A stretch of DNA of 43,623 nt from a virus (lineage: Duplodnaviria; Caudoviricetes): positions 1 through 43,623 of IMG/VR virus record IMGVR_UViG_3300011439_000031; one strand, given 5' to 3'. Positions 1-39,929 of this stretch are shown here, piece after piece (position 1 is the first letter of the stretch; every line of letters begins with the position of its first letter). Under the pieces are notes generated by a model. The model saw only the letters and a program-made list of their open reading frames with translations. It did not search any database and was not told the DNA's origin. A program made the translations under genes and the position numbers.

Positions 1-676
1 CAGTATTCACACCAACCAGAACTCGTCCATCAGGCATCGTGAATTCGATGCGAGCCGGAGGCTTTGTCAGGTTGATTCCTGTCTCACGCATTGCCTTCGT
101 AAGTTCAGCAACCTTTTCGTACTGATCGTACTTAGCAACAACGTCGCCCAACTTCTCGAACTCGTCATCTTCAATCGACCAAGTTACGAATGAAATTGCG
201 CGAGGACCACGGGGACCAACAGCGCCTGTACGCTTTGAAGCCATCTTCATTCCATCGTTCTGACCGAAAGACTCGGCCATTTCGATGAGACTCTTCAGCT
301 TCTGATACAGACCGGAACGAGTCGAGGAAAGTTCCTTGACCTGCTCTTCCGAAAGATCGGGCTTCTCAACTTGCGGCTGAGCTTCCACCATTGCCGCAAC
401 CTTTTCTCCCAAAGTCTCGGAGAACTTGTTCTGCAATGCACGGATCAGACCGAAATAAACACCGATCTGAGTCTTCTCATCAGTTGCTTCCAACTGATCC
501 ACAAGTGCCGTAGTAATCGGCTCCCAACTTTCCTTCGCATCTTCGATCAGATCGTTGGTGATCTTCCGCTTACCTGCGGCCTTAGAATCAACGAGAAGAT
601 CGAGAGTTCCATCAATCTCGTCAATTGCTCGGTGAAGCTCGTCATGAGCTTCCATCAAGTTAAAAGTACCGGCCAT
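1..676 (-). CDS. Hypothetical protein, >225 aa, runs off the left window edge (absent from the ORF track)
   Basis: Hand translation from ATG at 676 (MAGTFNLMEAHDELHRAIDE...PDGRVLVGVNT) is stop-free to the edge; GAAAGG RBS and a promoter lie upstream. Confidence 0.85.
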   Translation of the reverse strand, partial: MAGTFNLMEAHDELHRAIDEIDGTLDLLVDSKAAGKRKITNDLIEDAKESWEPITTALVDQLEATDEKTQIGVYFGLIRALQNKFSETLGEKVAAMVEAQPQVEKPDLSEEQVKELSSTRSGLYQKLKSLIEMAESFGQNDGMKMASKRTGAVGPRGPRAISFVTWSIEDDEFEKLGDVVAKYDQYEKVAELTKAMRETGINLTKPPARIEFTMPDGRVLVGVNT

Positions 677-736
677 TTTGGATACTTACCTTTCATTTTG
701 ATATTTGAGTGAGGGTAGTCCCCTCGGGGTACGTCC

Positions 737-766
737 ATTATCTCACAGACGCTAGCACCCTGTCAA
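737..766 (-). promoter_or_regulatory. Sigma70/SigA-type promoter TTGACA-N18-GATAAT with TG extension
   Basis: -35 at 761-766 and -10 at 737-742 on the minus strand, upstream of the ORF starting at 676. Confidence 0.8.
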
Positions 767-811
767 GGGTTTTCTTGATAGTCTTTCACTAGGCTCGGTC
801 GCCATAGTGCT

Positions 812-2300: not shown

Positions 2301-2301
2301 C

Positions 2302-3364: not shown

Positions 3365-3365
3365 T

Positions 3366-7921: not shown

Positions 7922-8179
7922 TCTGTTATGTTCAGACACTTCGTAACTGCTAACTGTAGTGTGTTTCTTTTACAAGAAAACATACACTAACAGTTGCAAA
8001 AATACCCAATGAAAGCCCAATAATTAGCCAGACCCCTGTACGAAACCAGCCGCCGAAAAACGTAAAGCTCACGCCGTAACATTTAATTCAATATAAGAGG
8101 CAATAATCAATTTAATTTAACCGAATAACAGCGACGGTCTTTCTCTGCTGAACGAACCGAGTAACTGCGACCCGCGCAG

Positions 8180-8217
8180 CGAAACTAAAGGGCCCGACTC
8201 TTTCGAGCCGAGCCCTT
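8180..8217 (-). terminator. Probable intrinsic terminator with GAAA tetraloop
   Basis: Minus strand AAGGGCTCGGCTC-GAAA-GAGTCGGGCCCTT then TAGTTT; the G-U pairs work only on the minus strand. Confidence 0.65.
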
Positions 8218-8336
8218 AAAGGGTTGGGTAGGGTAGGGGGTATTTCTGTCCCCCTACCCTCTTCGGGACCCACTACGCTAGATTCCCTAGGTATTTCTGG
8301 CCTAGTTCTAGTCGCTAATGATGACTCCAAGCTAGC

Positions 8337-8633
8337 TTAGAATTCTCCCGCTAGGGGATCATTCTCCACTACGATGGCTTCGACAACTGGCGTCGAATTC
8401 ACGTTAGGCTTGCGGATACGCTTTACCGTATCGCCCCTTGCGGGCTGCAATCCTTGCGCAATCAAATCAAATTGCGCATCGTGGAGCTTGCGAAGATCGC
8501 TCACGTAATCGCCCAGCGTATCGATATGCTTGGCAATCTGGGCAACCTCAGCGTCGCTACCATCCTTGAAGATTCCCGGGATCAATCGCCCATAGGCTTC
8601 AAATTTCGCCCGGAAAGTCTGCTTATCAGTCAT
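8337..8633 (-). CDS. Early hypothetical protein ending in NDPLAGEF
   Basis: Strong GGAGGTGA RBS; own promoter; downstream hairpins. Confidence 0.85.
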   Translation of the reverse strand: MTDKQTFRAKFEAYGRLIPGIFKDGSDAEVAQIAKHIDTLGDYVSDLRKLHDAQFDLIAQGLQPARGDTVKRIRKPNVNSTPVVEAIVVENDPLAGEF

Positions 8634-8786
8634 TAGTTCACCTCCCTTCGTCTGATCTAGTAGGAACGAAACTCTCCCTAACCTTGTTTCCCGGCCGTAG
8701 GTGGCGCCGTATCGGGAACCGCTTATTAGGCGGTATAGATCGTGCGGGCCTTGCGGACTCGGATGCCATGCGGTTTCGCTGAGAGA

Positions 8787-8816
8787 ATTATGCCCAGATC
8801 GCCGAAAGATTGTCCA
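8787..8816 (-). promoter_or_regulatory. Promoter TGGACA-N18-CATAAT
   Basis: -35 at 8811-8816 and -10 at 8787-8792; implies a ~145-nt leader before ATG 8633. Confidence 0.7.
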
Positions 8817-8826
8817 GATATTTCTT

Positions 8827-8842
8827 TGTGACGTCCGTCACA
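8827..8842. promoter_or_regulatory. CRP/GlxR-type site, perfect TGTGA-N6-TCACA
   Basis: TGTGACGTCCGTCACA. Confidence 0.8.
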
Positions 8843-8843
8843 C

Positions 8844-8877
8844 CAAACAAACGTTCGTCGATCGAACAAACGTTCGT
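8844..8877. promoter_or_regulatory. Two Gram-positive-type LexA (SOS) boxes
   Basis: CAAAC-AAAC-GTTCG (8844-8857) and TCGAAC-AAAC-GTTCGT (8862-8877) versus TCGAAC-N4-GTTCGA. Confidence 0.8.
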
Positions 8878-8893
8878 TGTGACAAATGTCACT
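8878..8893. promoter_or_regulatory. Second CRP/GlxR-type site
   Basis: TGTGA-CAAATG-TCACT, one mismatch. Confidence 0.7.
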
Positions 8894-8928
8894 TGACAAG
8901 CCTACCGAATAACTGCGACGCTGTCTTT

Positions 8929-8943
8929 TGAGAATGATTCTCA
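8929..8943. promoter_or_regulatory. Fur-family 7-1-7 box
   Basis: TGAGAAT-G-ATTCTCA perfect palindrome. Confidence 0.75.
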
Positions 8944-8948
8944 TTACC

Positions 8949-8989
8949 TGATAACGATTTCATGAGAACGATTTCTGAAATCGATTTCA
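8949..8989. promoter_or_regulatory. Three tandem LacI/GalR-family (cre-like) operators
   Basis: TGATAACGATTTCA, TGAGAACGATTTCT, TGAAATCGATTTCA: 14-mers with central CG; the last is a perfect palindrome. Confidence 0.7.
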
Positions 8990-9039
8990 AGCGAACCCAA
9001 TAACTGCGACCCGCCTGCGGCGTAATCTCTCCCGCGAGT

Positions 9040-11356: not shown

Positions 11357-12870
11357 AAACTAAACAAGACGACGTAGTTTCAGTAGGGACACTCTCTAAA
11401 CAGATGTCGGCCGCCTTGAGACGAACTGCTCTGCGGCCCTCTATTCACGGCTACAAACCTCTCCCTCACCAAGAACGTTTCCATAACGACCCCCATAAGA
11501 TAAGGTTGTTCATTGGTGGAAACCGCTCAGGTAAAACTGTCGGCGGCGGTGCTGAGGCTGTAATGATGTTGGCTGGAATTCACCCTGTACGGACCCCTCT
11601 ATTTGGGGCGCCTGTACGTTTAAGAGGCGTTGGAGTCGACTTTGAATCAGGAATCAACCGAATCATGCTTCCAGAAATTGCCCGTTGGATTCCTCCAAGC
11701 CTTCTTAAAAACGGAAGCTGGGAAGATTCCTACGTTAGAGGCGAGCGTACCCTGTATCTTACAAACGGCTCTGTTATGGAATTTCTATCTAACGACCAGG
11801 ACGTAGAAAAGCACGCTGGTGTTAGTCGTCACGGTATTTGGATAGACGAAGAATGTGACCAAGAGATATATAACGAGAACTTAGCTCGTACAATCGACTC
11901 CAAAGGTCATATTTGGATGACTGTAACGCCGCTTCAGGAACTTTCTTGGACTTACGATAGAATTTACACCAAAGGTAAGGCAAACGACCCTAATATTGGC
12001 ATCCATGAGGTCTCAACAACAGAAAATCCCTACATTTCATCGGCTGAAATGGACATTATGATCGATGGAATGAGTGATGCAGAGAAGAAAGCAAGACTTA
12101 CAGGGGCCTATATTAGTCAATCTGGGACCATTTTTAAGCAAGTTTTGAAGCCAGAAGTGTTCATAGATCCAATTGTAAACACTGAAAAATGGCCCCTGTA
12201 CATGTCAAAATGGGGCTTTTTTGGCTGTTTAGACCACGGTTACACCAATCCTACAGCCTTTTATATCATTGCATTCGACGGCGAAGGAAGAATGGTTGTA
12301 TGTGATGAATACTACGAAAGGGGGAGAGTCGTCGAAGAAAATGCCGTTGCGATTCTATCAAGAATTCGACAGCTACGTCTCTCCGAGAAGCTACTATATA
12401 TCGTTGCTGACCCATCCATCAGGAACAAAGATCCTATTACGGGAACATCAATCCAAGCTGAATACGCTGAAGCGGGACTCTATCTTGGATTGGGAAATAA
12501 CGATGTGGATGCGGGGATAAATAGACTAAGTAACCGTTTCCGTAAGAAGCTACTCTTTGTTACCAAGGATTGTGAGAACTTAATCTGGGAACTTCCTCGT
12601 TATAGGTGGGACAAGTTCCAGAGCCGTAAAATAGCTGAGCGTCGTAACGCTAAAGAGAGTCCTCTTAAGAAGGACGATCACGGTATTGACGCTATTAGGT
12701 ACGGTGTAGTAAGTCGGCCAGCCTTGCCTGGCGAAGTAGAGTTTAAGTACGGGAACATTATTAATGCCCCTGTAGCACTTCACGGCGAACGTTTCGATGA
12801 AGACCTTTGGTCTAAAATGGGCGCTTCACAGGAAAAGTCTTTTGATGACACACTAGGAACGGAGTTTTAA
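11353..12870 (+). CDS. terL: Terminase large subunit
   Basis: Walker A GGNRSGKT, Walker B IWIDEE, motif III TVTP, nuclease LDHGYTNP...DHGIDAIRY. Confidence 0.95.
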   Translation: MKTKQDDVVSVGTLSKQMSAALRRTALRPSIHGYKPLPHQERFHNDPHKIRLFIGGNRSGKTVGGGAEAVMMLAGIHPVRTPLFGAPVRLRGVGVDFESGINRIMLPEIARWIPPSLLKNGSWEDSYVRGERTLYLTNGSVMEFLSNDQDVEKHAGVSRHGIWIDEECDQEIYNENLARTIDSKGHIWMTVTPLQELSWTYDRIYTKGKANDPNIGIHEVSTTENPYISSAEMDIMIDGMSDAEKKARLTGAYISQSGTIFKQVLKPEVFIDPIVNTEKWPLYMSKWGFFGCLDHGYTNPTAFYIIAFDGEGRMVVCDEYYERGRVVEENAVAILSRIRQLRLSEKLLYIVADPSIRNKDPITGTSIQAEYAEAGLYLGLGNNDVDAGINRLSNRFRKKLLFVTKDCENLIWELPRYRWDKFQSRKIAERRNAKESPLKKDDHGIDAIRYGVVSRPALPGEVEFKYGNIINAPVALHGERFDEDLWSKMGASQEKSFDDTLGTEF

Positions 12871-13352
12871 TGTTACCTGTTATTGTAGACAAACACTCAA
12901 TGCTTCCTCCAGCAACTTGCTTTAAGTGTCGTGGCGATCAGGGATCACCTAGGCTTTATTGGATGCACATGGGAGTTACATTAGACTTCGAGGGCGTCGT
13001 TTATTACTGTAATGAGTGCCTGTACGATATCGTCAAGGCTATGCCAGATAGTTTCGTACAGTCTCATATCGACAAGCTAATTCTAGCTTACGACGAGGAA
13101 ATCGAAGAGTATAAGATTAGGGATGAAACGGCTACGGCTGTACTGGCGCGCTTGCGCCATTTGGGTTTTGATACGGATAAACTACTAGATGAAGGCGATT
13201 ATGGACGAGATGATGGAGACGATTCTTCAGCAGAACCTGTATCTGATGAACGTCCTCGTGGAAAACAATTCCTTTTTGATGGGGATGAACCAGCGGTTGA
13301 TGAATCGGTTGTTTCCGGAAAGTTCCGAATCGGACAACTTGGAGACAAGTAG
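12870..13352 (+). CDS. Hypothetical protein with CxxC...CxxC and acidic tail
   Basis: CFKC...CNEC; TAATG coupling to terL. Confidence 0.7.
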   Translation: MLPVIVDKHSMLPPATCFKCRGDQGSPRLYWMHMGVTLDFEGVVYYCNECLYDIVKAMPDSFVQSHIDKLILAYDEEIEEYKIRDETATAVLARLRHLGFDTDKLLDEGDYGRDDGDDSSAEPVSDERPRGKQFLFDGDEPAVDESVVSGKFRIGQLGDK

Positions 13353-13473
13353 CTACGAACTTCCTTCTACGGAGCGTAATGAAGAGGAAGGTCAAGAGGG
13401 AACTATTTATCTCGGCCTTCTTCCTGAGACTGTGCTAGATGAACTAGCCGAGAAGGAGTTTGAGGATGCCTGA
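13189..13473 (+). CDS. Small acidic hypothetical protein preceding the portal
   Basis: Bridges to the portal start; overlaps the upstream ORF in another frame. Confidence 0.55.
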   Translation: MKAIMDEMMETILQQNLYLMNVLVENNSFLMGMNQRLMNRLFPESSESDNLETSSYELPSTERNEEEGQEGTIYLGLLPETVLDELAEKEFEDA

Positions 13474-15517
13474 TGAGGCTGTATCCAAAGAAGTAGCTTT
13501 TTGGCAGGCTGAGTACAAAAAGTGCAAGCAACTACGAGAGCCGTTTGAACGGCAATGGTACTTGAACCTTGCGTTCTATAACGGCAAGCAATATGTTAGC
13601 TGGATTCCAGCTAACTCTATTCTGTCTAATCAGCGGCTTATGGATCCTCCTGCACCCAGGTACCGTGTACGATATATCGGCAATAAAGTTAGGCCAGCTG
13701 TACGAATGGAGATTGCGAAACTAACGAAGGAAGAGCCTCAGTTTTACGTTGTTCCGGCTACTACTGAGCCGACAGATGTAATGGCGGCTCAGGTTAGTGA
13801 GGCAATTGCAGAGTACATTCTAGATGCTGCTCATTTTAATATCGCTCGCCGTCGCGCTGCGTTTTGGATGAGTATTTGTGGCACTTCCTTTATCTCCACC
13901 TATATTGAAGAAGATCAGGGAGAGGATATAACTAAGTGTAACATCTGTTACGACGACATTACTCCTTTCCATCTTTTCATTCCTAACCCTCAAGAACAGT
14001 CCATTGAAGAGCAGCCCTACGTTATCCGTGAACGGGCCATTCATGTAGATAAAGTTCAAGAGCAATATGGAATGAAGATAAATCCTTCGGCGATTACAGC
14101 AATTCCTGTGGATCAACGCTTCATGCAGGCAATTGGAATCAGGAATCAAGGACCGTCGATGGATATGGTGACTATGTGGGATATTTGGATTAAGCCCTGC
14201 ATTAAATATCCACAAGGAGGTTACATCGTTATTGCAGGGTCTAAAATCGTGTACGTAGAGCCTCCTATTCAAGATCCCATGTTGAGCCTAGTTGAAAGGC
14301 CACTAGACCTACTTGGTTTTACTCCGACTAGCTACCCATACAAACACGGCATGTTTCCTTTTGCTAAGTCTGAGCACGTTCCGTCTGGTGGTTTCTATGG
14401 CTTGTCGATTATTGAGGATATGATAGCTCCACAACGGGTATACAACCGTCAACGCTCATCCATCATTGAATCAAGTAATCTGACATCAAAGCCGCAGCTT
14501 GTTTACACGAAGGGATCAATTGATCCTAACAAAATCACTTCAGAGCCGGGGTTGCTCATCCCGGTTAACCCCGGCTTTGAAGCTCCTCACTACCTCGATA
14601 CTAAGCCAGTTTCTTCTTATGAAGAGAAGAACATTGAACTTACACTTACTGATCTTGATGATGCAGCGGGACAATACGAAGTAACTAAAGGTAGAACTCC
14701 TCCCGGAGTTGAAGCGGCTTCAGCAATTGCTTATCTTCAGGAAGAGAACGACTCTCGACTTCACACCACGATTGCATCAATTGAAGAAATGACTACTGTT
14801 ATCGGGATTCAAACACTAGAGTTAGTTCAAGAGTTCTGGCCGCCGGAGAAGATTCTAGCTGTTGTTTCTAAGGCTGGAGCTTTAGAGACACAGCAGTTTA
14901 TGAATGCCAACGTTATTGGCGGCACAGATATCAGAGTCGAGACAGGTTCTATGGCACCTAAGTCACGAACGGCTAGACAAGCTTTCATTACTGAGTTGAT
15001 GAAGCTTCAGTTGATTCCACCTGAAAAGGGACTTCGTTACTTGGAAATGTCCGAGACAAACCGCCTGTACGAAGAACTACAGGTCGATTCTAAGCAAGCT
15101 CGTCGTGAGAACGTTAAGATGGCACAAATGCAACAAGATCTTCAACAAATGCAGATGCAGCAAGCAACACAACAAGCTGGTATTGGACCATTAGCTGGTT
15201 TGCCTGGAATGGAACAAGAACCACAGGCGCCTGTACAATTGCCCATGTTTCCCATCAACCCTTGGGATAATAATGATATTCACCTGTACGAACACGGTTT
15301 GTACATGAAGTCGCAAGAATTTGAGACTTTGCCAGATGAGGTAAAGCAGGTTTTTATTACCCACTACATGCTCACTGAGCAGGCTATTTTAGGAGCGCAA
15401 TATGGCGCAGGAGTTCCAGGTGCCGAATACGATACCACCGGCACAGAGCAGCCCGCAGATGGACAGTCAGCCCCAAGTTCAAATGGACAGCCCCAGCCCG
15501 CAGGAAACACTGGGTGA
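13466..15517 (+). CDS. Portal protein (P22-like, podoviral type)
   Basis: ~680 aa after terL; AFYNGKQY, GFYGLSIIEDM...QRVYN and AASAI motifs; Q-rich C-terminus; ATG 13466 follows AAGGAG. Confidence 0.85.
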   Translation: MPDEAVSKEVAFWQAEYKKCKQLREPFERQWYLNLAFYNGKQYVSWIPANSILSNQRLMDPPAPRYRVRYIGNKVRPAVRMEIAKLTKEEPQFYVVPATTEPTDVMAAQVSEAIAEYILDAAHFNIARRRAAFWMSICGTSFISTYIEEDQGEDITKCNICYDDITPFHLFIPNPQEQSIEEQPYVIRERAIHVDKVQEQYGMKINPSAITAIPVDQRFMQAIGIRNQGPSMDMVTMWDIWIKPCIKYPQGGYIVIAGSKIVYVEPPIQDPMLSLVERPLDLLGFTPTSYPYKHGMFPFAKSEHVPSGGFYGLSIIEDMIAPQRVYNRQRSSIIESSNLTSKPQLVYTKGSIDPNKITSEPGLLIPVNPGFEAPHYLDTKPVSSYEEKNIELTLTDLDDAAGQYEVTKGRTPPGVEAASAIAYLQEENDSRLHTTIASIEEMTTVIGIQTLELVQEFWPPEKILAVVSKAGALETQQFMNANVIGGTDIRVETGSMAPKSRTARQAFITELMKLQLIPPEKGLRYLEMSETNRLYEELQVDSKQARRENVKMAQMQQDLQQMQMQQATQQAGIGPLAGLPGMEQEPQAPVQLPMFPINPWDNNDIHLYEHGLYMKSQEFETLPDEVKQVFITHYMLTEQAILGAQYGAGVPGAEYDTTGTEQPADGQSAPSSNGQPQPAGNTG

Positions 15518-16202: not shown

Positions 16203-16217
16203 AAGGACTGACCTAGA

Positions 16218-17423: not shown

Positions 17424-17439
17424 ATCTGGGCGTTATCCT

Positions 17440-17494
17440 GGGGAGAGTGTTAGGTTCGAGTTGCCACTTGACTAACACTCTCCCCTCCTTCTTT
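17440..17494 (+). terminator. Hairpin after the capsid gene (terminator or processing site)
   Basis: 14-bp stem GGGGAGAGTGTTAG/CTAACACTCTCCCC then TCCTTCTTT. Confidence 0.65.
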
Positions 17495-17505
17495 AAGGAG
17501 TATAA

Positions 17506-17748: not shown

Positions 17749-17750
17749 TT

Positions 17751-21130: not shown

Positions 21131-21140
21131 AGGAGAAGTC

Positions 21141-24600: not shown

Positions 24601-24811
24601 ACGGCCAGTCATACCGCAGCAGCTTCTTATAGAAACTGCACATGAAGGTAATTTTACTTTCACCATAAGTAAGTCTGAAATAACTAAGTCTAAGTACGGT
24701 TGGATTTCTGATGTTTATCACGCTATTGGATGGAGCTCTCGTATATCTTCGGATGAGAGTTCTACACTGGATATTTATTCGGGAGTACGGACTAAGAGTA
24801 AGGTGCATTAA
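21608..24811 (+). CDS. 1067 aa tandem-repeat protein (43 x IQQALEKNxAQNV-like), putative fibre/filament component
   Basis: Repeats counted by eye; lies in the structural operon. Confidence 0.8.
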   Translation: MPVVPIQQALEQDRARDTPSFHPLIQQALEKDLANNVTVQFTKIPKFVLIQQALERNSAQNSSGSKFVLIQQALERNLTQDPQFIKSVTLSQASEANVAQNVTRFVFPPKIVLVEQALEKDLAQSVTFQFTLIPKFVLIQQALEKDASQDVIRYIFPPTIVPVQQALEKNVAQTVTFQLTLTPKFVLIQQALEKGVAQDVTLGRTYLLQQALEKDQSQDFSFSKSTSVQQAVESNQTYDVARFIQPPKLVAITQALEKDASQNVTFSFTLSPKFFLLEQALERNQSQDVARYVIPPKNVLVEQAVERNQAYTVTAQFTLTPKLILVAQAVERNLAQNVELAKSTPIEQAEESNVAQNVTFARSTPIQQAFEGNQTYDVIRFILPPKLILVQQALEKNASQDVTAQFILSPKFVLIQQALEANLSQDVIRYIQPTKVVPVEQAIERNLAQNVTAQLTLTPKLVLIDQSLEKNLAQNVAFTRAKSIEQAIEANVAQDVIRYVQPSTNVLIQQAFENNVARDVNLLPSKNVLLQQAIERNLAQNVTALIKPALVIEQAFEGNIARDLTEFTPPLTPIEQAFESNVAYNLVQVPSTLVPIQQAFEKNAALDVAQPVPFPIEQAFEGDVARNVVGLVQAAKLVLIQQAFEANLARDFGQPSYFTIQQAFERNLAFDFPIKVVSIETAFEGDLARDVSLPRLTLIEQAFEKNVAQNLVFSFSGKVALIQQAFEGDVAQNLGKFVQQTLLETAHEGNFAFEVTQYIIETLHGSWFSDLYHAIGWQSKISSIGSVSDLYHAITLKGSVKLPAWLSDVYPAVGVKSKVYSQEIVRVTAFLVSALEQAFENDVAQNLANPVPQIISLTQALERGLSRDVAHLLPDVVLIEQAEEQNVALSITFMFPRVVVIQQALEKDVAQNVIRYAPVTVLIQQAFEKDVAQNVVHLFHNVLLEQAVERNQALNIGQGSYKVIEIAKENNLALDLIKKPLFTISQALERNLAQNLVQRPVIPQQLLIETAHEGNFTFTISKSEITKSKYGWISDVYHAIGWSSRISSDESSTLDIYSGVRTKSKVH

Positions 24812-28398: not shown

Positions 28399-29286
28399 AT
28401 GGGCTCCCGTTACCTTACAGATTTAGATGATGTATGTCGTCGTACAGGGTATCCTGTAGTTGAAGTAGGAAGTGCAAAGAGTACACCTGGTGATGCTTGG
28501 AAGAGTCGTTCTCGTAGTTCTGGTGGTTATGATTCTGGTAAACCAAATCATATTATTGCGCACCACACGGCCGGACCTAGCGATGGTTGGAAACTTGCTA
28601 ACTATCTTGTTTTTGACCACTCTGATCGCCCTTGTGCTAATATTAGTTTGATGCGTGATGGTGCAATTTACGTACAGGCTGGGGGCGCATCTAATCACGC
28701 TGGTACAGGTCAAGACCCTTGTTCTCCTAATGTCACTAGCGATGATTACATGAACTCGCAGTCAATTGGAATTGAAGCTGCAAACTTAGGTGACGGTGAA
28801 ACTTGGCCTAGTAAACAACTTGATAGCTACGTTAGGCTTTGTGGTGAGTTGTGTAAGGCTTATGATATTCCAGTTGAAAGAATTCACTCTCACTTTGAAT
28901 GGGCACCTGATAGAAAAGTAGATCCAGCTGGACCACCTAAGTACGCCTCAGGTGGAAATAAGTGGGATATGAATGCTTTTCGTCGTGACGTTGCTGATTA
29001 TCTAAATGGAGACTTACCTCCTCCTGACCCCGATGATTTTGAAACTGAAACAGTTACTATGGAGCTTCCTAATCTTAAAAAGGGAGACCGTGGTGATGCA
29101 GTAAAGCGTATGCAGCATCTTCTTGCAGCCGCTGGTTATCTGGAAGAAAACCCCAATTATTTCGATGGAGATTGGGGTAACGTAACTGAAGAAGCTAAGA
29201 TCGCTTTTGATGTTGCTCACGGATTGACTCCTTCTCCACCGTCCGATTGTGGACCTAAATCATGGAAGGTTTTGCTCGATGGCTGA
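28399..29286 (+). CDS. Endolysin: Amidase_2 N-acetylmuramoyl-L-alanine amidase plus peptidoglycan-binding domain
   Basis: IIAHHTAG, NHAG, SIGIEA, HFEWAPDRKVDP; C-terminal LKKGDRGDAVKRMQ..L...DGDWG..T. Confidence 0.9.
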   Translation: MGSRYLTDLDDVCRRTGYPVVEVGSAKSTPGDAWKSRSRSSGGYDSGKPNHIIAHHTAGPSDGWKLANYLVFDHSDRPCANISLMRDGAIYVQAGGASNHAGTGQDPCSPNVTSDDYMNSQSIGIEAANLGDGETWPSKQLDSYVRLCGELCKAYDIPVERIHSHFEWAPDRKVDPAGPPKYASGGNKWDMNAFRRDVADYLNGDLPPPDPDDFETETVTMELPNLKKGDRGDAVKRMQHLLAAAGYLEENPNYFDGDWGNVTEEAKIAFDVAHGLTPSPPSDCGPKSWKVLLDG

Positions 29287-30500: not shown

Positions 30501-31840
30501 TGCCTACTAAGAAAAAGGAACCGTTGCCGCCGTATGATCCATATAGCGGTACAGTTTCTGCTCCTGGAAAAAACCAACTTCAACCACCCTTTAAGGTAAC
30601 AAACACAACTAAGGGTCCAGTTAGAAGTAAGGACCTTATCCCTAATCCTAAATTGGCTGCTGGTATTAAGCAAGCTAACGCTAGACATGATTATCTAACT
30701 CCAGAACTAGCTGCGGCTATTAAACGACAAACTGAACACGCTCCCACGTATAAGTCTGGTGGACTTTCTCCTGAGTTTATTAAGGAGCAGTCAACAGCAT
30801 CGGCTCAGAGGCTAGCTAATAAAATTCTATCAGCTGTTGCAAGTACTTCTCAAGGTGGCGGAGGCGGCGGAAGTAAACCAAAGAGTAGTGGAGGTACTAA
30901 AAAGAAGAACACAGGTACAGGAAGTAAAGGTGGACCTGCTGCTCCGGCCGCTCCATCTGGTCCTAGTGTAACTGATCTTATTAATGATATGTATGATAAG
31001 TTGCTAGCTGAAATTGGTACACAACAGACTAATACGCTTGGTGATTATGATGCTACTAAGGCTACAATCACTAATCAGTATAAGACAGCACAACAAGACC
31101 TGTACGCTAAGTACCAGGCTACACAAAACCCTCTAGCCGCACAGGCAGCTAATCTTGGAGTTGACTACGGTAACTCTTCAATTAACGCTACACAAGATGC
31201 CGCCATGAAGAGACTTCAGGAAACTGGTGACCTTAGTTTGACTAGTGATCTAAGTTACTTGGACAAGATGAAGTTGATGCAAGAGCAAAGCTTTGGTGCT
31301 CTAAAGACTGGTTCTCTACAAGAGAAGGCAGATGCTCAGCTACAATATCAGATGTATTTGCAACAACTTGCCGCAGAAGCTGCTAAGGCTAAATCAGGTG
31401 GTGGAGGGGGCGGAGGTTCAAAAAGAAAGGGTGGCGGTGGAGGTTCTGGTGGAAGTGGTGGAGTAAAGAGTTCTGCTACTTCAACTTCTACCTCAGTTGA
31501 TACTGGAATCAACTCTTTGATTGCTGATCTTATTGCTCAAGGTGATTATGAAGGTGCAGCTTCTGTTCAAAGAGGTTATGATATTCAGCAAGGTGGCGCT
31601 CTAGGAGCAGCTACTAAAGCTAGTACGTACACGCCTGGCAAGGTTACTAAGGTTAAAACTAATACCTCTCGTAACTCTGCCATTACTTCAATTAAAAATG
31701 CTGGTCAGACAGCTAGAAATACTAAGGCTAAGGCGGCTGCTGATCGAGCTGAGAAGGATCGTCAACTTTATCGGTCAATCGCTAAGGGCTACGGTGGAGT
31801 CTTCACTACCAGTACTGTTAAACACACAGGTAAGCCGTAA
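30500..31840 (+). CDS. Putative internal virion/ejection protein
   Basis: A/Q/G-rich with poly-Gly linkers; position in the operon. Confidence 0.6.
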   Translation: MPTKKKEPLPPYDPYSGTVSAPGKNQLQPPFKVTNTTKGPVRSKDLIPNPKLAAGIKQANARHDYLTPELAAAIKRQTEHAPTYKSGGLSPEFIKEQSTASAQRLANKILSAVASTSQGGGGGGSKPKSSGGTKKKNTGTGSKGGPAAPAAPSGPSVTDLINDMYDKLLAEIGTQQTNTLGDYDATKATITNQYKTAQQDLYAKYQATQNPLAAQAANLGVDYGNSSINATQDAAMKRLQETGDLSLTSDLSYLDKMKLMQEQSFGALKTGSLQEKADAQLQYQMYLQQLAAEAAKAKSGGGGGGGSKRKGGGGGSGGSGGVKSSATSTSTSVDTGINSLIADLIAQGDYEGAASVQRGYDIQQGGALGAATKASTYTPGKVTKVKTNTSRNSAITSIKNAGQTARNTKAKAAADRAEKDRQLYRSIAKGYGGVFTTSTVKHTGKP

Positions 31841-31844
31841 CTAA

Positions 31845-34800
31845 ATGGGTGCTGTCCAAGATCGTGAGAAAGCTTTCCAAGATGCGTTTAATACCATGCT
31901 TGGAAATAAGATCGGACGTCCACTCAAGCCGTACAAGAACTACCAGCCGTCAGAGAAAGTACGAGCCGATCTAAACAAAATTCTTATTGAAGGAGCTAAG
32001 GCACAAAAAGAAATCCTAGCTGGACCTAAGCGTCGAACGTCAGCTAGTGCAGGTAAAAAATCTGAACTCACTCCTGAACAGAAGTCAGCCCGTCAAAAGC
32101 AATTTCTTAAGGACTCTAAGGTTACTAAAGAAGGTAACCGTTCTTTCTTTGATAAGTTTAAGGACGTTGTAGGACGTGGCCTGAACCTAATTTCGCGACC
32201 GGGATTTACAGTTACAGGAGCCCTGTACGAGCAAGCTAAAGCTATGGCCGAGGGTGAACCTTTCTGGTCTACTCTTGATGAAGTAGCTTATGGTGGTTGG
32301 AGAGGTTTATCAGGACAAGCACAACACGGTGCTGGCGACGTTCTCAGAGAAAAGAAGAAGGGCTACAACTATAAGGGCGGCGGTATAGGTGGCTTTATAA
32401 ATGAAGCTGCTCGTATTGGAAGTTTGCCTGTAGATTTTCTTGGCGCCGCTGCTACTGTTAGTAATCAACTACCTAAGGGTTGGCAAGTTAATTTCGATCG
32501 TGCCATTGGCTTAATTGGCGATGTAGGTTACGACCCGCTAACTTGGACAGGTGCAGGAGCAGTTGGTAAAGCTAGAAATGTAGCTGGAGCAACTGGCAGA
32601 CAAGCCTTTGAAGAAGGTGCGGGTAGAGTTGTAAGAGACGCAGTAGAAGGTGCTGGCCACAGTCGCTCTATTGCTGATGACGTTGTAAACGCTATTGTTC
32701 CTAGAGTTGATGAAGTAAGTCTAGATATTGGCAGAGGCGCACAAAAGACTAAGACTCTAGGACGTCGCCAAATCATAGATCAAGTTCCAGACGTTACGGG
32801 GGAGGCTGTACGAACTCGAATCCTTGAACCTGTACGTACTAAGATGGAACAGATTACGAGCACGATGAAGTTGAATCGTACTCCTAATCAAAACGTCATT
32901 AGAGGCTGGCTACACGCTGATCCCAACTTTAGAAACGTCTATGATAAGTTCGTTACTAACGCACAGCAGATGGCTACGCATCCAGGAGCACTTGATATTG
33001 ATGATGCTCTGAGACTGAGTTTAGAACAATTCTCTACTGAAATTGCTCCCCACATCGATGATATTGTTGACGTAGTTAGATCTGGACTTAAGAGTAACCT
33101 AATCACGGCGCCCGGTATTAAGGTTGGTGGCAAGGTAGTTGCAACCTCTGACAGAATGGGGTCTGCACTTAACAGAATTGCTGACAAGATAGCTGAAGGT
33201 CCGCTCGATGAGATGATGAAGAGTTTGTCTTATGGGCGAGGTAACCCAGGTGTCTCTCTTGGAATGGGTGGTGTTACTCGTTCAGAACTAACTCATACCT
33301 TCAAGCAACTGTTTAGAGAAGTTGAACTACGTGGCAAGTCAGTAATTAAGGAAGATGCTAGAGTAATTCAAGAAGCCTTGCAAGACGGTGTACAGCTTGC
33401 TGACCCAATCTTGGAAGGACACAGAGTTTGGCTTCGTCAGAAGTATGATGAAATCTTTGCTCTAGAAGAAGCATACGGCCTGCGTACAAGTAACTCTGTT
33501 GTTGCTAATAATCGTCGTCTAAGTGATTACGTGTACACTAATCTTAAGTCTAACTCTAAGTCAACTAGAGAACTTAGAGATGCTATGAGAAAGAGTGTTA
33601 AGCAGCACGGAGATTACAGAAACTTCACACTAACTGATCTGCAAGCCGCTGGAGCTAAGCCGGAGACAAACGCCTTCAACAACTTACTAGCTCGACAGAT
33701 TAAGGCTAACAGAGATATTGCACCAATCCACTTTGCACGTCAGATAAATGAGAAGTTTGGTATTAAGGGTACACTTTCACACAACGAGATAGTTCGCCGT
33801 AAGCTGATTCCAGTTAGTGCGGATAGTAGAGAGTTGCCACCTAGTCTCGCAGCTTCTCTACGTCCTGGTGAGAAGATGTACCTCACCAAAGAGAGTCACG
33901 AAATTCTAAAGAGGTACAGAACGTTTGCTGAGACAGGCTCTAAGGAACACCAAGCTCTTCTGCACTCAGTGGATTACGTCACAGGTAAGTTCAAGCGACT
34001 TAGCACCCTGTACTACCCTTCATTCCATATCCGTAACTTCATTGGGGATATGTATATGGGAGCTATTGATGGGGTTGGTGTACGAGACTACCTTAAGATC
34101 TTTAACAAGTGGAATAAGAGAGCATCTAGCACTATCTCAATTGGTGGGACTCAGCATTCCTTTAGTGATCTAGTTGAACTGTACGAACGCAATCTTTCGT
34201 CGTCTGGTCACTTTCTACAAGAGATTGGTGAGACTCCTCTCTTTAAGGGTAAGCGTATTAGTGGACGTGTAGGAGACTGGGCTGAGAAGAGAGAGGATTT
34301 TGGTCGTTTCACTCACTTCACTCATGCTCTAGATGAGGAGATGAAACACAACCTTACTAAGTACACTGATCCTGCAAAGGCGTGGGATAAATCCGTACAG
34401 GCAGCAACGTACAGGGTTAATAAGTATAAGTTCGATTACTCTGCTTTAACGAACCTGGAACAGAAGTACATTAAGAGAATCATTCCGTTCTATACGTATC
34501 CTCGTAAGGCACTATCAACACTCGCAGAAGCTACTTTAATCTCGCCACGAATTCTATCTAACACAGCACACGGCATTATTAACTGGCAACAATACGCCGA
34601 TAAAAATAACCCTGGCTTTGATCCTATTGGAATGCCAGGATGGATGCGCGACTCTCCCTTTATTCCATTTGGAGGCGGAGCAGCACCGCTAGGTATGGAT
34701 GTTGGTGGTCTTCTTCCAATGCAGGGTGCTACGGACTGGATGCAAAATCCTATGTCCAATATTAACCCGCTCTTCCGTGGAGTTTCAGACCTAGCTTATA

Positions 34801-35180
34801 ATGAAAACCCCTTTACGCACCAAGACGTGAAGAACCCGATTGACGTAGTTCTACAGAACCTTCGTCCCGTTAATGAGTACAAGCGTCTTACTAAGGACGC
34901 CCCACCTGTTGTTAAAATCTCTAATATCCTGGGTATTCCTATTAGGAAAGCCACTCAGGGACAACAGGATGCTCAGATTAATAGCCTTCTTTTCAAGGCT
35001 AAGGGACAAGTTACTAAACTAGATACTCGCGGCATGGAACAGGGATACCACGTTTACTACAGTGAGCGTAAGGATGGTATTGACGTTCGTATTGAGGACG
35101 TTAATACCGGGAAGGTTACAGCTTATCAGACTATTCCTGAGGCTGAGGAAGCTCTAAATAAACTTCTTGCCGGAAAGTAA
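31845..35180 (+). CDS. Large internal virion/ejection protein
   Basis: 1111 aa; DPLTW, FHIRNFIG and KFDYS.LT..E...KRIIPFY motifs typical of podoviral large polyvalent/ejection proteins. Confidence 0.7.
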   Translation: MGAVQDREKAFQDAFNTMLGNKIGRPLKPYKNYQPSEKVRADLNKILIEGAKAQKEILAGPKRRTSASAGKKSELTPEQKSARQKQFLKDSKVTKEGNRSFFDKFKDVVGRGLNLISRPGFTVTGALYEQAKAMAEGEPFWSTLDEVAYGGWRGLSGQAQHGAGDVLREKKKGYNYKGGGIGGFINEAARIGSLPVDFLGAAATVSNQLPKGWQVNFDRAIGLIGDVGYDPLTWTGAGAVGKARNVAGATGRQAFEEGAGRVVRDAVEGAGHSRSIADDVVNAIVPRVDEVSLDIGRGAQKTKTLGRRQIIDQVPDVTGEAVRTRILEPVRTKMEQITSTMKLNRTPNQNVIRGWLHADPNFRNVYDKFVTNAQQMATHPGALDIDDALRLSLEQFSTEIAPHIDDIVDVVRSGLKSNLITAPGIKVGGKVVATSDRMGSALNRIADKIAEGPLDEMMKSLSYGRGNPGVSLGMGGVTRSELTHTFKQLFREVELRGKSVIKEDARVIQEALQDGVQLADPILEGHRVWLRQKYDEIFALEEAYGLRTSNSVVANNRRLSDYVYTNLKSNSKSTRELRDAMRKSVKQHGDYRNFTLTDLQAAGAKPETNAFNNLLARQIKANRDIAPIHFARQINEKFGIKGTLSHNEIVRRKLIPVSADSRELPPSLAASLRPGEKMYLTKESHEILKRYRTFAETGSKEHQALLHSVDYVTGKFKRLSTLYYPSFHIRNFIGDMYMGAIDGVGVRDYLKIFNKWNKRASSTISIGGTQHSFSDLVELYERNLSSSGHFLQEIGETPLFKGKRISGRVGDWAEKREDFGRFTHFTHALDEEMKHNLTKYTDPAKAWDKSVQAATYRVNKYKFDYSALTNLEQKYIKRIIPFYTYPRKALSTLAEATLISPRILSNTAHGIINWQQYADKNNPGFDPIGMPGWMRDSPFIPFGGGAAPLGMDVGGLLPMQGATDWMQNPMSNINPLFRGVSDLAYNENPFTHQDVKNPIDVVLQNLRPVNEYKRLTKDAPPVVKISNILGIPIRKATQGQQDAQINSLLFKAKGQVTKLDTRGMEQGYHVYYSERKDGIDVRIEDVNTGKVTAYQTIPEAEEALNKLLAGK

Positions 35181-35342
35181 TAGTCTGTACGCCCCTGTGT
35201 TGTAGCCAGATATAAACACTCACTAGCGGGCTGTACGTCGCTCTACGGTCATTCTAGGCCCCTCTGGCGACCCCTCTGAGCAGGTCTTATGCGGTATGTC
35301 CTCGACCATGTGTGCTAGTGACATCACTATACAAGTTGCCTA

Positions 35343-35372
35343 TAGTCAACTGCCTATCCTATGTGGTATAAT
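35343..35372 (+). promoter_or_regulatory. whiB promoter TAGTCA-N18-TATAAT, predicted leaderless transcript
   Basis: TGTGG-TATAAT with the hexamer at 35367-35372; ATG 35379 falls at the expected +1. Confidence 0.75.
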
Positions 35373-35378
35373 AGGGGC

Positions 35379-35927
35379 ATGTCCGGACGAGACTATTCTT
35401 GGAGGGACGACAGCTTGTGCAAACTGCTGCATCTAGACCCTCAAATTTTCTATGCTTCTGAACGACAACCTCAACTTCGCGCTCAGGCAAAGGAGGTATG
35501 TAAACGTTGTGGTGTTAAACAAGAGTGTTTAGAAAACGCTCTAAGAAATGAAGAGTTTGGAATATGGGGAGGGATGGATGAGCATGAACGATCTAATTAC
35601 CGCGTGAACCGGTACCTAGCGGCAAGGCGTGAAGAACTTTCACAGCGTAGTAAACAGCGTGAGCAACAGCATCTTGAGAGTGTGTCCCTTTCTTCCCCGG
35701 TACGTATTTTAATCCCGCCCATCCGAAACCCATTGGCTTTATCGCCGGCTCCTGTAGAACAAACTTTCGATCTTCCATCTCTGCTACACCTTGTATTAGA
35801 CCGATCACCCGTACAGGTTCCATCGAGTTCCAATCAAAAGCCCCTGTACGAGCGCGGTTCGGCCGAACTAGAAAGTTCTCGCATATTACTACATCGCATT
35901 CTTTTACCAACTGTAGTACCTGGTTAG
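35379..35927 (+). CDS. whiB: WhiB-family Fe-S transcription factor with long C-terminal extension
   Basis: W...LC...F...AKEVCKRCGVKQECLENAL...FGIWGG...ER; start reassigned to ATG 35379. Confidence 0.9.
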   Translation: MSGRDYSWRDDSLCKLLHLDPQIFYASERQPQLRAQAKEVCKRCGVKQECLENALRNEEFGIWGGMDEHERSNYRVNRYLAARREELSQRSKQREQQHLESVSLSSPVRILIPPIRNPLALSPAPVEQTFDLPSLLHLVLDRSPVQVPSSSNQKPLYERGSAELESSRILLHRILLPTVVPG

Positions 35928-36334: not shown

Positions 36335-36338
36335 GGCT

Positions 36339-36719
36339 TTAACATTTCCTTGCTGTTGTCCAGGCTCTCCAGCCTTGGGTCTTGTAGATTAAGAGTGCCG
36401 CTTTCAAGTTACGACGTGGATTATATAGGTCGTGTGGGAAACGAATAATTCCCTTTTTCATCAGATATTTGTTGTTGGCACCATTAATTTGAGCTAACCC
36501 TCTTGACCCGCCATGCGGGTCATTTCCATTATATGCCCTAGGATTTCCACGACTCTCTCTACTTATGATACAGGACAACCTGTGCCATTGTGAACTCTTC
36601 CAACCAACTGCTAAAGCTGTACTTCTCCATCGGGAGGCTAAAGGATAATGAGCCTCAGCTTCATTTGCGGGTACTACTAGACACGTACTTAATACTAGCC
36701 CGGTTATTAGTTTCTTCAA
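36339..36719 (-). CDS. Secreted lytic transglycosylase (SLT/Rpf-like lysozyme fold)
   Basis: Signal peptide ending AEA; CIISRES.GNP, SRGLAQIN, LYNP..N..AA..IY...GWRAW. Confidence 0.85.
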   Translation of the reverse strand: MKKLITGLVLSTCLVVPANEAEAHYPLASRWRSTALAVGWKSSQWHRLSCIISRESRGNPRAYNGNDPHGGSRGLAQINGANNKYLMKKGIIRFPHDLYNPRRNLKAALLIYKTQGWRAWTTARKC

Positions 36720-38365
36720 TTTAGTCTCTTTCTGTCGGTTGTGAACCTTAAGTCAAAGATCGGCTCAGTCCACTCTTCACAAATTTGTTGGGCTTTTTTA
36801 ACTTCATCTTCTGAACTGACTTGCAACCAAACACTGTCATGTACTTGGCAACGCTGATCGAAGCCAGCTTCTTCTAGTTTTATCATTGAACGTTTCACTA
36901 TCTCGAAAGCTCCACCTTGGATAAGAGAATTAAATGCTTTCCGGTGCTCGTATTGCTGTTTGAAATGGCGACGGCGACCACCCCACATTTGAACCCAATT
37001 CAGTTCATCAGCGGCCCGTTCTGCCCTGTACATGCACTTAAATAGCTCCCTGTACAGTTCCTTGTACTTCTTCAAGTACTTAGATGCTGTCTGCTCTGAG
37101 ACTCCAAGTTGCTGAGATAACTTTCTTTGTGAGCCACCGTAGATAATCAGAAAGTTGATGGTCTTTGCATCTTGTCTGGAAATTCCCAGTTCATTAGCTG
37201 TGGTCTGATGCACGTCACCTTCGGCCTTGAATGTTTCAAGCAATCCAGGCTCTTCTGAATACACGGCTGCAAGTCGCATCTCAATATTCTTATAGTCAAT
37301 CTCCCACAACTGGTAACCCGGATCAGGCAGGAATAGTTTTTTAACCTTTCCGTCTCTGGGTATCTGTTGTAGATTTGGATCTGCGCAAGATAGACGACCC
37401 GTAACCGTCCCATGTTGTTTAAACCCCGCATGAAGTCTGCCATCAGATTTAGTCATTTCTAGGTAGGGAATGTAATAGCCCGTTAGCTGCTTATTAAGCT
37501 TCCTAAACTCTAGAATTAAACCACAGATAGGATGATTAGAAGTTTCTAGAAAGTCGTCATTCACTTGTGCTCGCCCTGTTGGTGTACGTGTGAGTACCTT
37601 CAATCCTAGACCAAAAGGCGGCTCGTCAAATAGCTTCTGTTGAAGAGTATTTGACTTAGCTGGGTCAAAGCCAATCAGAGAGATTAGTTCCTTAAGTCTC
37701 TCTTCACAACGAATTTTTAGTTCAGCCGCCATCTTCCTATCTACCAACATACCCCGTTCTTCAAGACGCTGTAAGACTAGAAGGAACTCTCTATCTACTT
37801 TCCATACTTCCTCGTACTCTAGGAAATACGGCTTTAGCTTATGGTATAGGTCTAGTGTAATCCTAGCGTCTTGCTTAGCATAACGAGCCATAGCAAATGA
37901 GGGAACGTCGTTCCATTTAACTGACTTCATAAGTTTAGCCATAGCTAAGTCTTTACCTACACCAAGTAACTCCGTGGCTAGATCCTCTAGGCTGTAGCCA
38001 AATAACTTGTTCTCATCAATGAGATGAGCCATCAGCATTGTATCATAGAACTCTTTAGGAGGCTGTACACCTGCCTTCTTCAAGATTTGTAGGTCGAACT
38101 TAGCGTTATGAAAGACTACTGGAACATTCAAAGAACTAAGTAGGTCTGCAGGCGGCTGTACGTTTTGCTCGTTTTTTATCATCCACGTTTCGTGACGTAC
38201 AGGTATGTAGAACTCTTCGTCATCAGTCGCTAAAGCTATTCCCATACAGTAACGTTCGTTCCAATTATTAGTCCAGTTCGTCTCAGTATCACAACTTACC
38301 TCTGAGATTGAACCTGTCAGCTTCTCCTGTAGGACTCTCAGTAGTTCCAAGTCGTTGACCAACAC
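36716..38365 (-). CDS. polA: Family A DNA polymerase with 3'-5' exonuclease
   Basis: DTET, FHNAKFD, YAKQD; TGRLS..PNLQQIP, DYKNIEMR, R..AKTINF..IYG, QVHDS. Confidence 0.95.
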   Translation of the reverse strand: MLVNDLELLRVLQEKLTGSISEVSCDTETNWTNNWNERYCMGIALATDDEEFYIPVRHETWMIKNEQNVQPPADLLSSLNVPVVFHNAKFDLQILKKAGVQPPKEFYDTMLMAHLIDENKLFGYSLEDLATELLGVGKDLAMAKLMKSVKWNDVPSFAMARYAKQDARITLDLYHKLKPYFLEYEEVWKVDREFLLVLQRLEERGMLVDRKMAAELKIRCEERLKELISLIGFDPAKSNTLQQKLFDEPPFGLGLKVLTRTPTGRAQVNDDFLETSNHPICGLILEFRKLNKQLTGYYIPYLEMTKSDGRLHAGFKQHGTVTGRLSCADPNLQQIPRDGKVKKLFLPDPGYQLWEIDYKNIEMRLAAVYSEEPGLLETFKAEGDVHQTTANELGISRQDAKTINFLIIYGGSQRKLSQQLGVSEQTASKYLKKYKELYRELFKCMYRAERAADELNWVQMWGGRRRHFKQQYEHRKAFNSLIQGGAFEIVKRSMIKLEEAGFDQRCQVHDSVWLQVSSEDEVKKAQQICEEWTEPIFDLRFTTDRKRLN

Positions 38366-39929
38366 TTCTCACCTCAAAAGTTAGGTTTTCAGTTCTTCTA
38401 ATAGGTAGTTCAAATAGAGGACCAAAGCGATTCTTTAACACTTTAAAGTTCAGCAGGCTACCTTCGCCGTACAGGGAGATAACAGTACTGGCTACAGTCA
38501 ACGGATACATAGCCCCGTAGCTATCTTTAAGAGTCGGGCCATCTTTAGCATCATAACTAGTCTTTGTAACGTGATGGATAAAGATAACTGCTGAGTCTCC
38601 ACTCACTTGAATTATTGAATCAACGGCCTGCTTAAGTAGTTCTTCATCCTTAAGACTTGGAACCATCTGGACCAAACTGTCTACTATGAACAAGTGAGGT
38701 TTGTATTTATCTAACAAAGTTCTTATTGACTGTAAGCCATGAGTGATTTCAGGAAAGGCTAGAGTGAAGTTATCTCCTCCCTTGATACCACTTAGTCCTT
38801 TGTGTTGTTTCTCCAAGAAAACCCTTAATAAAGTCCTGTGTATCTCCTTGGAGAAGAAGAGAACTTTTATTGGTTCTTGTCCTTCACCGGAAAACACCGG
38901 TTGACCTGCTGCTAGTAACCGTCCAAGCCATAATCCTAGTTGAGTTTTACCTACACCTGGCTGACCTACTAAGACTCCCATCTCACCCGCTGGAAGTAAC
39001 CCTGGAATGATCCAGTGAATATCAGGCTCTTGTAAGGCTAGCAACTCTGTCAGGGAGTAAGCTTCTACCTGTAGTGCAGAAACAATTGGCAGTATGACCT
39101 TAGCTGCGATACTAGCTAACCGCTCCAATCGGTCATTTCTATCAGCGTACTTTCGTACTCGCTCGTCTAAAACGTACAGGGTGCTGAAGATTTCTTGTTC
39201 TTCAAAACCCATCCGAGCTAAATCGGCAGCTACTTTAAAGTAAAAGGTAGACCTGTCGCCTTCCTTTACTTGATACTTCTCAACACGTCGAGTTATATCA
39301 AGAGGAAGTCGAGACTTAAGAGCCGACCAATCTAGAACATCTGCCGCTATAAAGACCTTTGGCTTAGCTATTATTCGCTCAGCACTATCAAAGTCTTTAG
39401 TCGAATGTACAGAGGTTAGATCGATCTTCAGAATGGTAACAGGTACAGGCTCCCCACTTTTGTAATTGAAAGTCTCAGGTGGGCGAAGTACACGGTTAGC
39501 ATTCCAACAAGCAATGTCGGCATCTAGATGATGGGCAAGGCGAAAGGTAACTTCTTCAATAGCCGCTACCTCAGTAAGAGTCTCAACTTTCCAGTAACAG
39601 TGAATATTTTGGACTCCCGAACTCTGGATCATTAAATCCGGCTCAGGGATTCCCTTCCAATCACCAGTAAAGTTACCATCAAACTCACACCAAACAACTT
39701 GTGTACTCTGGACTTCCTCTCGAAGTCCAGAGCGTTTATTGAAGAGACTAGTACCTATGTGTACATCTGCTACACGACTTTGTGTGCGGATAAAGTCAGT
39801 GAGTTCTCTCTGTTGACGAGGCCACTCAAACCATTCGGTTTTCCATTCGCCGTTAGGTCTAGTTGGTACATAGACATGGCCTACATTCTTACCATAGAGA
39901 AAGTCTAAGTAGGTCTCTAGTTCTTTCAC
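38289..39929 (-). CDS. Primase-helicase (RepB-like primase plus RecA-fold AAA_25 helicase)
   Basis: VWCEFD, SSG..N.HCYW, NRVLRPPETFN; GQPGVGKT, IVDS, IHH, KNRFGP. Confidence 0.85.
   Translation of the reverse strand: MKELETYLDFLYGKNVGHVYVPTRPNGEWKTEWFEWPRQQRELTDFIRTQSRVADVHIGTSLFNKRSGLREEVQSTQVVWCEFDGNFTGDWKGIPEPDLMIQSSGVQNIHCYWKVETLTEVAAIEEVTFRLAHHLDADIACWNANRVLRPPETFNYKSGEPVPVTILKIDLTSVHSTKDFDSAERIIAKPKVFIAADVLDWSALKSRLPLDITRRVEKYQVKEGDRSTFYFKVAADLARMGFEEQEIFSTLYVLDERVRKYADRNDRLERLASIAAKVILPIVSALQVEAYSLTELLALQEPDIHWIIPGLLPAGEMGVLVGQPGVGKTQLGLWLGRLLAAGQPVFSGEGQEPIKVLFFSKEIHRTLLRVFLEKQHKGLSGIKGGDNFTLAFPEITHGLQSIRTLLDKYKPHLFIVDSLVQMVPSLKDEELLKQAVDSIIQVSGDSAVIFIHHVTKTSYDAKDGPTLKDSYGAMYPLTVASTVISLYGEGSLLNFKVLKNRFGPLFELPIRRTENLTFEVRSVGQRLGTTESPTGEADRFNLRGKL

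Follow-up and report, generated by a model that had tools for sequence, protein, structure and literature searches.

We describe a short sequence word, CCTGTACG, that is dispersed over positions 225–39180, on both strands, of a stretch of 43,623 nucleotides (IMG/VR record IMGVR_UViG_3300011439_000031; "the window" below means this stretch at its full length, which is a whole 43.6-kb virus record). The word, in its general form S-C-T-G-T-A-C-R, likely marks priming sites read on the template strand. The genome, complete and podovirus-like, is that of an uncultured phage and encodes a terminase, a P22-like portal, a capsid, an endolysin, WhiB, a resolvase, PolA, a primase-helicase, Sak4, a Cas4-like exonuclease and an SNF2 helicase; no tRNA genes were found in the window. 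Among named phages, MW202795 and three phages of actinobacteria (Shocker, Jasmine and DS1) are nearest to it, and because of these relatives and the WhiB gene the host is probably actinobacterial as well. The gene for the family A DNA polymerase (36716–38365, minus strand) adjoins the primase-helicase gene (38289–39929, minus strand), whose 546-residue product combines an AEP domain, a predicted helix bundle and an AAA_25 (RepA-like) helicase and is the likely reader of the word.

An earlier note on this DNA had listed 21 copies of CCTGTACG and 10 further copies of CTGTACG, and all of these coordinates are exact, with 11 copies of the octamer on the plus strand and 10 on the minus strand. From left to right, they comprise a plus-strand copy at 225–232, antisense in an open reading frame at 2–676; two minus-strand copies at 1069 and 1378 (1069–1385); the sole intergenic copy (8035–8042, plus strand); five plus-strand copies in the terminase-to-portal segment (11584, 11611, 13019, 15064 and 15283; 11584–15290), a segment throughout which the minus strand is free of CCTGTAC; two minus-strand copies at 28441 and 28671 (28441–28678), antisense in the endolysin gene; three plus-strand copies at 31099, 32222 and 32829 (31099–32836); three minus-strand copies at 34394, 34408 and 35810 (34394–35817); one plus-strand copy within the WhiB gene (35843–35850); and three minus-strand copies in the polymerase and primase genes, at 38196, 38468 and 39173 (38196–39180). 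As had been proposed, the copies are intragenic (20 of 21) and fall in different frames (five of the six frame and orientation classes), 14 of the genic copies being sense and 6 antisense. The claim that there is no strand bias holds for the genome overall and fails locally, where the minus strand has an 18.5-kb gap free of CCTGTAC (P ~0.001).

The enrichment exceeds what composition predicts under every null model that was applied. The G+C (guanine plus cytosine) content, put at about 43% by eye, is 44.1%, and the early estimate of about one octamer expected by chance agrees with dinucleotide shuffles, which give a mean of 0.77 copies of CCTGTACG and a maximum of 4 in 100 shuffles. Markov models predict 1.2, 2.1 and 4.0 copies at orders 2, 3 and 4, respectively, and at orders 1–3 CCTGTACG is the top octamer of the window. 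Shuffling of synonymous codons within each gene gives 2.0 +/- 1.3 copies (maximum 6 in 300 shuffles), compared to the 20 seen in genes, so that with codons and dinucleotides preserved in separate nulls none approaches the 20 copies that the earlier note had named as the telling number. Under the codon shuffle the hexamer CTGTAC is enriched in both gene orientations (39 against 10.2 expected in sense, 31 against 13.8 in antisense), which, with the 2.0 octamers of the codon shuffle, bears out the view that the signal acts at the level of DNA and is not a peptide or codon effect.

The word is graded, and CCTGTACG is the peak of S-C-T-G-T-A-C-R: there are 40 copies of CCTGTAC and 78 of CTGTAC. As CCTGTAC(G), the word stands about once per kilobase in the window, with copies on both strands. 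Substitutions in the T-G-T-A-C core reduce the count to 0–4 copies, while the flanks accept C or G on one side and G or A on the other. The base preceding GTAC in C-n-GTAC is T 78 times in the window, compared to 15–18 times for each of the other bases. The word is not palindromic, as it differs from its own reverse complement. CCTGTAG is in mild excess in the window (16 copies against 7.7 expected). Separately, we observe that the stretch 15402–19727 holds eight copies of CTGTAG, which is the word of most relatives.

The primase-helicase was examined by structure prediction and comparison with relatives. The model of residues 1–285 has a predicted local distance difference test (pLDDT) score of 91.5 and contains a predicted helical bundle. 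Its AEP catalytic domain (residues 1–184; 39378–39929, minus strand) matches the S-2L PrimPol (6zp9; Z 18.8, root mean square deviation [rmsd] 2.6, 169 aligned residues) and RepB' (3h20; Z 17.1, rmsd 3.0, 173 aligned residues). Residues E82/D84, H110, D138 and R149 are invariant or nearly so across 18 relatives, the catalytic motifs having been matched by sequence, and R226 and S227 are invariant across the same set. The helix-bundle domain (residues about 201–285; 39075–39329, minus strand) has its best bundle match, a weak one, in the pRN1 structure 6gt7 and carries D225-R226-S227...G241 at the spacing of D308-R309-S310...G324 in pRN1; of these, pRN1 and RepB' share D308, S310 and G324 as conserved residues (PMC2965215). 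This spacing places R239 (codon 39213–39215, minus strand) at the position of K322 of pRN1. Further matches are weak too: PriCT_1 to the helix bundle under the cut-off, RepA at E 0.04, RepB_primase in 5 of the 18 relatives, and only S-2L in a sequence profile search of the PDB. Taken together, the protein is likely an AEP primase-helicase of the RepB'/pRN1 type, with its helix-bundle part matched weakly. GenBank often labels this primase-helicase "RecA-like DNA recombinase" (loci L163 and L096 and other cultured phages).

Words of related form recur in phages that carry this primase. The relative MW202795 has 28 copies of CCTGTAGG against 1.1 expected; among 80 capsid-linked and 10 polymerase-linked loci the top word is mostly CTGTAG, with CTGTAA and CTGTGG groups; and CTGTCG turns up in further primase-bearing loci. 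The common core of the relatives' words is T-G-T, and CCTGTAC itself reaches its highest density in L003 and L004, two fragments that are the nearest to the window. For a sample chosen by primase homology, eight phages at 22–27% identity were taken from the match list and Jojan60 was then added (n=9), and hexamers were ranked under the codon shuffle, where N-T-G-T-x-y words make up about 3% of all hexamers. Such a hexamer ranks first or second in 10 of 11 primase-bearing genomes, namely the window, MW202795 and 8 of the 9 chosen by homology. The hosts of the carriers belong to several phyla and include Arthrobacter, Serratia, Pseudomonas and Clostridium, and the phages are of podo-, sipho- and myovirus types, a variety which argues against packaging proteins, WhiB or any one host system as the reader.

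The controls were six genomes chosen by homology to the PolA, SNF2, Sak4 or exonuclease of the window, with another primase or none, plus S-2L. In the usable controls (five of these and S-2L) the best N-T-G-T-x-y hexamer ranks 19–102 and none of the six carries the word family; S-2L has rank 23, and its helix bundle does not match the family profile (E 0.08). The seventh control, STP12, ranked first; it is a relative of Lebethron (70–80% identical) and was dropped as a control, its record being without the region that holds the primase. This record (L153, OR754314) is called complete, and about 9 kb of the Lebethron genome, including most of the primase gene, is missing from it. In Nonagon, CCTGTGCT occurs 19 times against 1.8 expected, and no polymerase is found among the 89 listed features. 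In this sample the word family goes together with the primase family and is missing from the usable controls. As a side observation, Bacillus phage BSTP12 (L150), which has a different primase of 967 residues, has the top word CTGCGG (45 copies, 11.7 expected). No other of 465 hexamers of like count is spaced as evenly, and this is possibly an instance of the same principle with a GCG triplet.

Comparison of the primases suggests which residue distinguishes between these words. Among 54 aligned primases, column 239 is Glu or Asp in all 50 genomes labelled GTnG (Shocker set aside); the exceptions are the window, which has GTAC and Arg, and two genomes that have GTAA and Ser, and of 64 conserved columns this is the only one altered in all three exceptions. 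An automatic call over 62 genomes, 41 of them clear, gives 35 pairings of Glu or Asp with G, one of Glu with A (Shocker), three of Arg with C and two of Ser with A. Of 51 new loci, 49 could be aligned and all have Glu, the sixth base being G in 13 of 13 clear calls and in 24 of 36 weak calls. In Jojan60 the top word, CTGTGC, was found first and the column was then seen to be Arg; Jojan60 and Anansi form a separate clade in which both have Arg. The rule was set down before seven further phages were analysed, of which Anansi (Arg, GTGTGC) and Muddy and MW202455 (both Asp, GTGTGG) fit it. Across these alignments, helix-bundle column 239 covaries with the sixth base of the word. It makes chemical sense for a carboxylate to go with G, and a guanidinium with C, at the exposed edges of the bases. 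At column 261, Tyr is present in 4 of 4 GTC calls and Phe in 8 of 9 GTA calls among the new loci, a trend that the window (Tyr261, GTA) contradicts. A search for R239 in closer kin of the window by metagenome scan returned only a contig of equal length that is 100% identical, and the L003 and L004 fragments gave no primase match.

The layout of the sites along genomes was also compared. In 6 of 11 relatives plus-strand sites, 0.5–1.4 kb apart, are more even than random (P<0.05), and in many cases no hexamer of similar count is more even than the word. The stretch 4–10 kb upstream of the capsid gene holds 114 plus-strand and 46 minus-strand sites (from 34 of 80 capsid-anchored loci, those with a clear word), an excess in the same direction as in the window, as might be expected if replication forks set out from the left end. 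At aligned positions, sites of the window coincide with sites of relatives in 0–2 cases among 22–47 sites. Conversion of CTGTAG to CTGTAC in place was considered and rejected, with 0–2 instances per comparison. Relative to L003 and L004, 8 of 15 sites are conserved, compared to 28% of all hexamers, although the sites are few and overlapping and this comparison is unusable. The primase branch of the window is long (1.57 against a median of 0.47) in what is a quick tree, with the placement of the long branch unsure.

We infer, with a probability of roughly 80%, that CCTGTACG is the strongest form of a dispersed word that serves as the template recognition site of the phage's RepB'/pRN1-type primase-helicase, and that selection for priming sites likely maintains the word at a density near one copy per kilobase. 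What the data show directly are the enrichment, the fold of the protein, the joint occurrence of word family and primase family, and the covariation of one helix-bundle column with base 6. In pRN1, the helix bundle binds the template C1-T2-G3-T4-G5-C6-T7, where C1 pairs with dGTP and K322 touches T7, 3' of GTG (PMC13469122). Placed in the same frame, the window word reads C-C-T-[GTA]-C-G. By analogy with pRN1, G-T-A and its 3' neighbours on the single-stranded template would be bound by the helix bundle, the T directly 5' of GTA would template the first nucleotide (A) and the C's the next (G) nucleotides, and the primer would be elongated by PolA; at which base synthesis begins is less certain, because RepB' starts on the T within GTG (PMC8567376). 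The earlier note had proposed the site of a DNA-handling protein, which agrees with this reading, although a primase was not among its options and the packaging, modification and HIP1 options that it did name fare poorly (see below).

Several observations weigh against the priming reading or against parts of it. Within the window, the genes at 15402–19727 (scaffold, capsid and the next large virion gene) contain no CTGTAC, and the sites are not evenly spaced (coefficient of variation 0.96–1.85). Azira has its best N-T-G-T-x-y hexamer only at rank 29. The primase travels with the replication module, and a linked gene could be the reader. The best helix-bundle match, pRN1 6gt7, reaches only Z 6.1 (rmsd 4.1, 93 aligned residues), the pRN1 register rests on residue spacing taken from papers, and K322 of pRN1 touches base 7, while the covariation here is with base 6. 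Calls are weak in 21 of 62 genomes and in 36 of the 49 new loci, and since the genomes are related, near-duplicates included, only about three independent changes underlie the covariation. Among the further phages, Nonagon and CMP1 (Arg) fit the rule at the level of 7- to 8-mers only, CMP1 having a weak hexamer call of AG; Strzyga (Asp) is mixed, enriching both GG (73 against 40) and GC (59 against 31); and Satis (Arg) gave no call, with 50 of its 187 kb covered. Shocker has Glu, yet its top word is CTGTAAAG; it also carries evenly spaced CTGTCG and is an ambiguous case.

The Shocker word deserves description in its own right. In this genome (L093, MW507126) CTGTAAAG(G) occurs in 45 copies against about 0.1 expected, intragenic and on both strands, and in L235 it occurs in 25 copies in 20.8 kb, while it is missing from the relatives L054 and L234. 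A promoter element was considered and rejected, as the copies are dispersed through genes; another Shocker word, TAGGGTA (25 copies), clusters near gene boundaries.

A stronger version of the priming reading, to which we would give even odds, is that these primases form a widespread family that follows a readable code, in which residue 239 would set the base after GT-x (G for Glu or Asp, C for Arg, A for Ser), residue 261 (Tyr or Phe) would bias the third triplet base between C and A, and the phages would write the matching word into their genes as a priming map. Already on the main reading, a change of the near-universal Glu to Arg at 239 in the lineage of the window would have shifted the preference from CTGTAG to CTGTAC, after which the genome would have built new sites at new positions; in the stronger version it may still be rebuilding its map. 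The cues are the uneven spacing, the non-shared site positions, the leftover excess of CCTGTAG and the long primase branch, which suggest a switch and a rebuilding not yet complete; the same layout data could reflect weaker selection instead.

Four other explanations were weighed. The most resilient, and still an improbable one, is that the word belongs to another protein of the replication module (the Cas4-like exonuclease, Sak4, the SNF2 helicase, the resolvase or PolA), for example as a Chi-like signal, and merely travels with the primase. Most word carriers do encode module genes, and Chi-type sites are likewise non-palindromic and dispersed. What speaks for the primase instead is that the word family is missing from controls which match the PolA, SNF2, Sak4 or exonuclease of the window and have a different primase or no primase, that the only control with the word, STP12, is the Lebethron relative whose record is without the primase region, and that the covarying residue sits in the primase helix bundle, in a column test that covered the primase alone.

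That the word is a mutational sink without selected function, arising from methylation, deamination or biased repair in the manner of HIP1, we consider very unlikely. The absence of CGTACG (0 against 5.4) alongside enriched TGTACG and the strong avoidance of several restriction-like words speak for such a process, but CGTACG is also absent from two relatives that have other words, and enrichment requires the 5' C's of a non-palindromic word. No methyltransferase is found among the 57 open reading frames of the phage; a host repair bias misfits both the even per-strand spacing in relatives and the presence of one word family over several host phyla, and the tracking of a primase residue by the sixth base is equally foreign to a HIP1-type sink. 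Just as little can be said for a site of packaging, of nicking or of a transcription factor (WhiB, stoperator-like): the phage encodes both WhiB and a terminase, and 14 of the 20 genic copies are sense, but phages with the word family have head and tail modules that are unrelated, spanning podo-, sipho- and myovirus types, and some lack an annotated WhiB, only 1 of 21 copies is intergenic, and sites of the window seldom face sites of relatives in aligned genes (1–2 of 44–47). Finally, although nine copies read x-Leu-Tyr-x and five Pro-Val-Arg, codon or codon-pair bias (Leu-Tyr-Glu, Pro-Val-Arg) is judged refuted by the codon shuffle, by enrichment in both sense and antisense, and by the fact that the word uses CTG, a rare codon that accounts for 128 of the 1166 Leu codons.

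Some further features of the window were recorded. At 21608–24811 (plus strand), among the virion genes, lies a gene for a 1067-residue protein with >30 imperfect repeats of about 20–25 residues, which has no convincing family match and is the source of several other frequent 8- to 10-mers, and at 20648–21617 (plus strand) there are two tandem paralogous genes of family phrog_26662 (no known function). TAACTGCGAC occurs three times on the plus strand (8162, 8910 and 9001; 8153–9014), close to where the two gene arms diverge, and is a candidate operator or origin element. Compared to codon shuffles the window strongly avoids CGTACG (0), TTCGAA (0), CAGTGC (0), CACTGC (1) and CAGCTC (3), and likewise GAGATC, TGATCA, CTGCAG, GGATCC and ACGCG, a pattern suggestive of pressure by more than one host restriction system.

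Only for a few AEP primases is it known how start sites are chosen. If the priming reading is correct, counts of words in genomes would reveal what many primases not yet characterised recognise and would point to the residues responsible, the cultured phages Jasmine, Anansi, Muddy, Serbin and Lebethron would have their strong and so far unexplained signature accounted for, and priming needs would be seen to shape codon choice genome-wide. A literature search, whose coverage left out supplements and most subscription papers, listed no work on such a residue code or on the enrichment of these words across genomes. Priming sites as such are familiar elements; a map of them over a whole genome, with the word changing along with a residue, was not among what that search listed.

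The system can be compared with several known ones. HIP1 of cyanobacteria is an octamer over-represented genome-wide in all frames, a palindrome linked to methylation; the window word shares the genome-wide occurrence in all frames and differs in being asymmetric and following a phage primase. The PrimPol of cyanophage S-2L is the best structural match to the catalytic domain (Z 18.8), whereas its helix bundle does not match and its genome lacks the word family. The primase of T7, gp4, is of the DnaG type with a zinc-binding domain, and its fold is unrelated to that of AEP primases. It resembles the present case in its short priming words, 5'-(G/T)2GTC-3', spread through the phage genome (PMC12839067). 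The NrS-1 primase-polymerase is likewise a phage helix-bundle primase and primes at GTGA/GTGG, starting at the base 5' of the motif, although its fold is distant (Z 6.0) and the accessible text on it reports neither genome-wide enrichment nor a residue that changes specificity (PMC8718748). In RSF1010, RepB' has the closest catalytic fold after S-2L (Z 17.1), and there are the weak RepB_primase and RepA matches; RepB' starts at two single-copy hairpin sites of 40 nucleotides (PMC8567376). The ssiA/ssiB arrangement, with one such hairpin per strand at the origin, is not seen in the window, where primase and helicase are fused and dozens of short copies are dispersed with unrelated flanks. From pRN1 ORF904 the window differs in its GTA triplet, its longer word, the genome-wide occurrence on both strands, the AAA_25/RepA-like helicase and the residue at column 239, which is Lys in pRN1, while the two are alike in joining an AEP domain to a helix bundle (predicted in the window), in the D-R-S...G spacing and in the C-T-[GTN]-N layout of the word (PMC13469122, PMC2965215).

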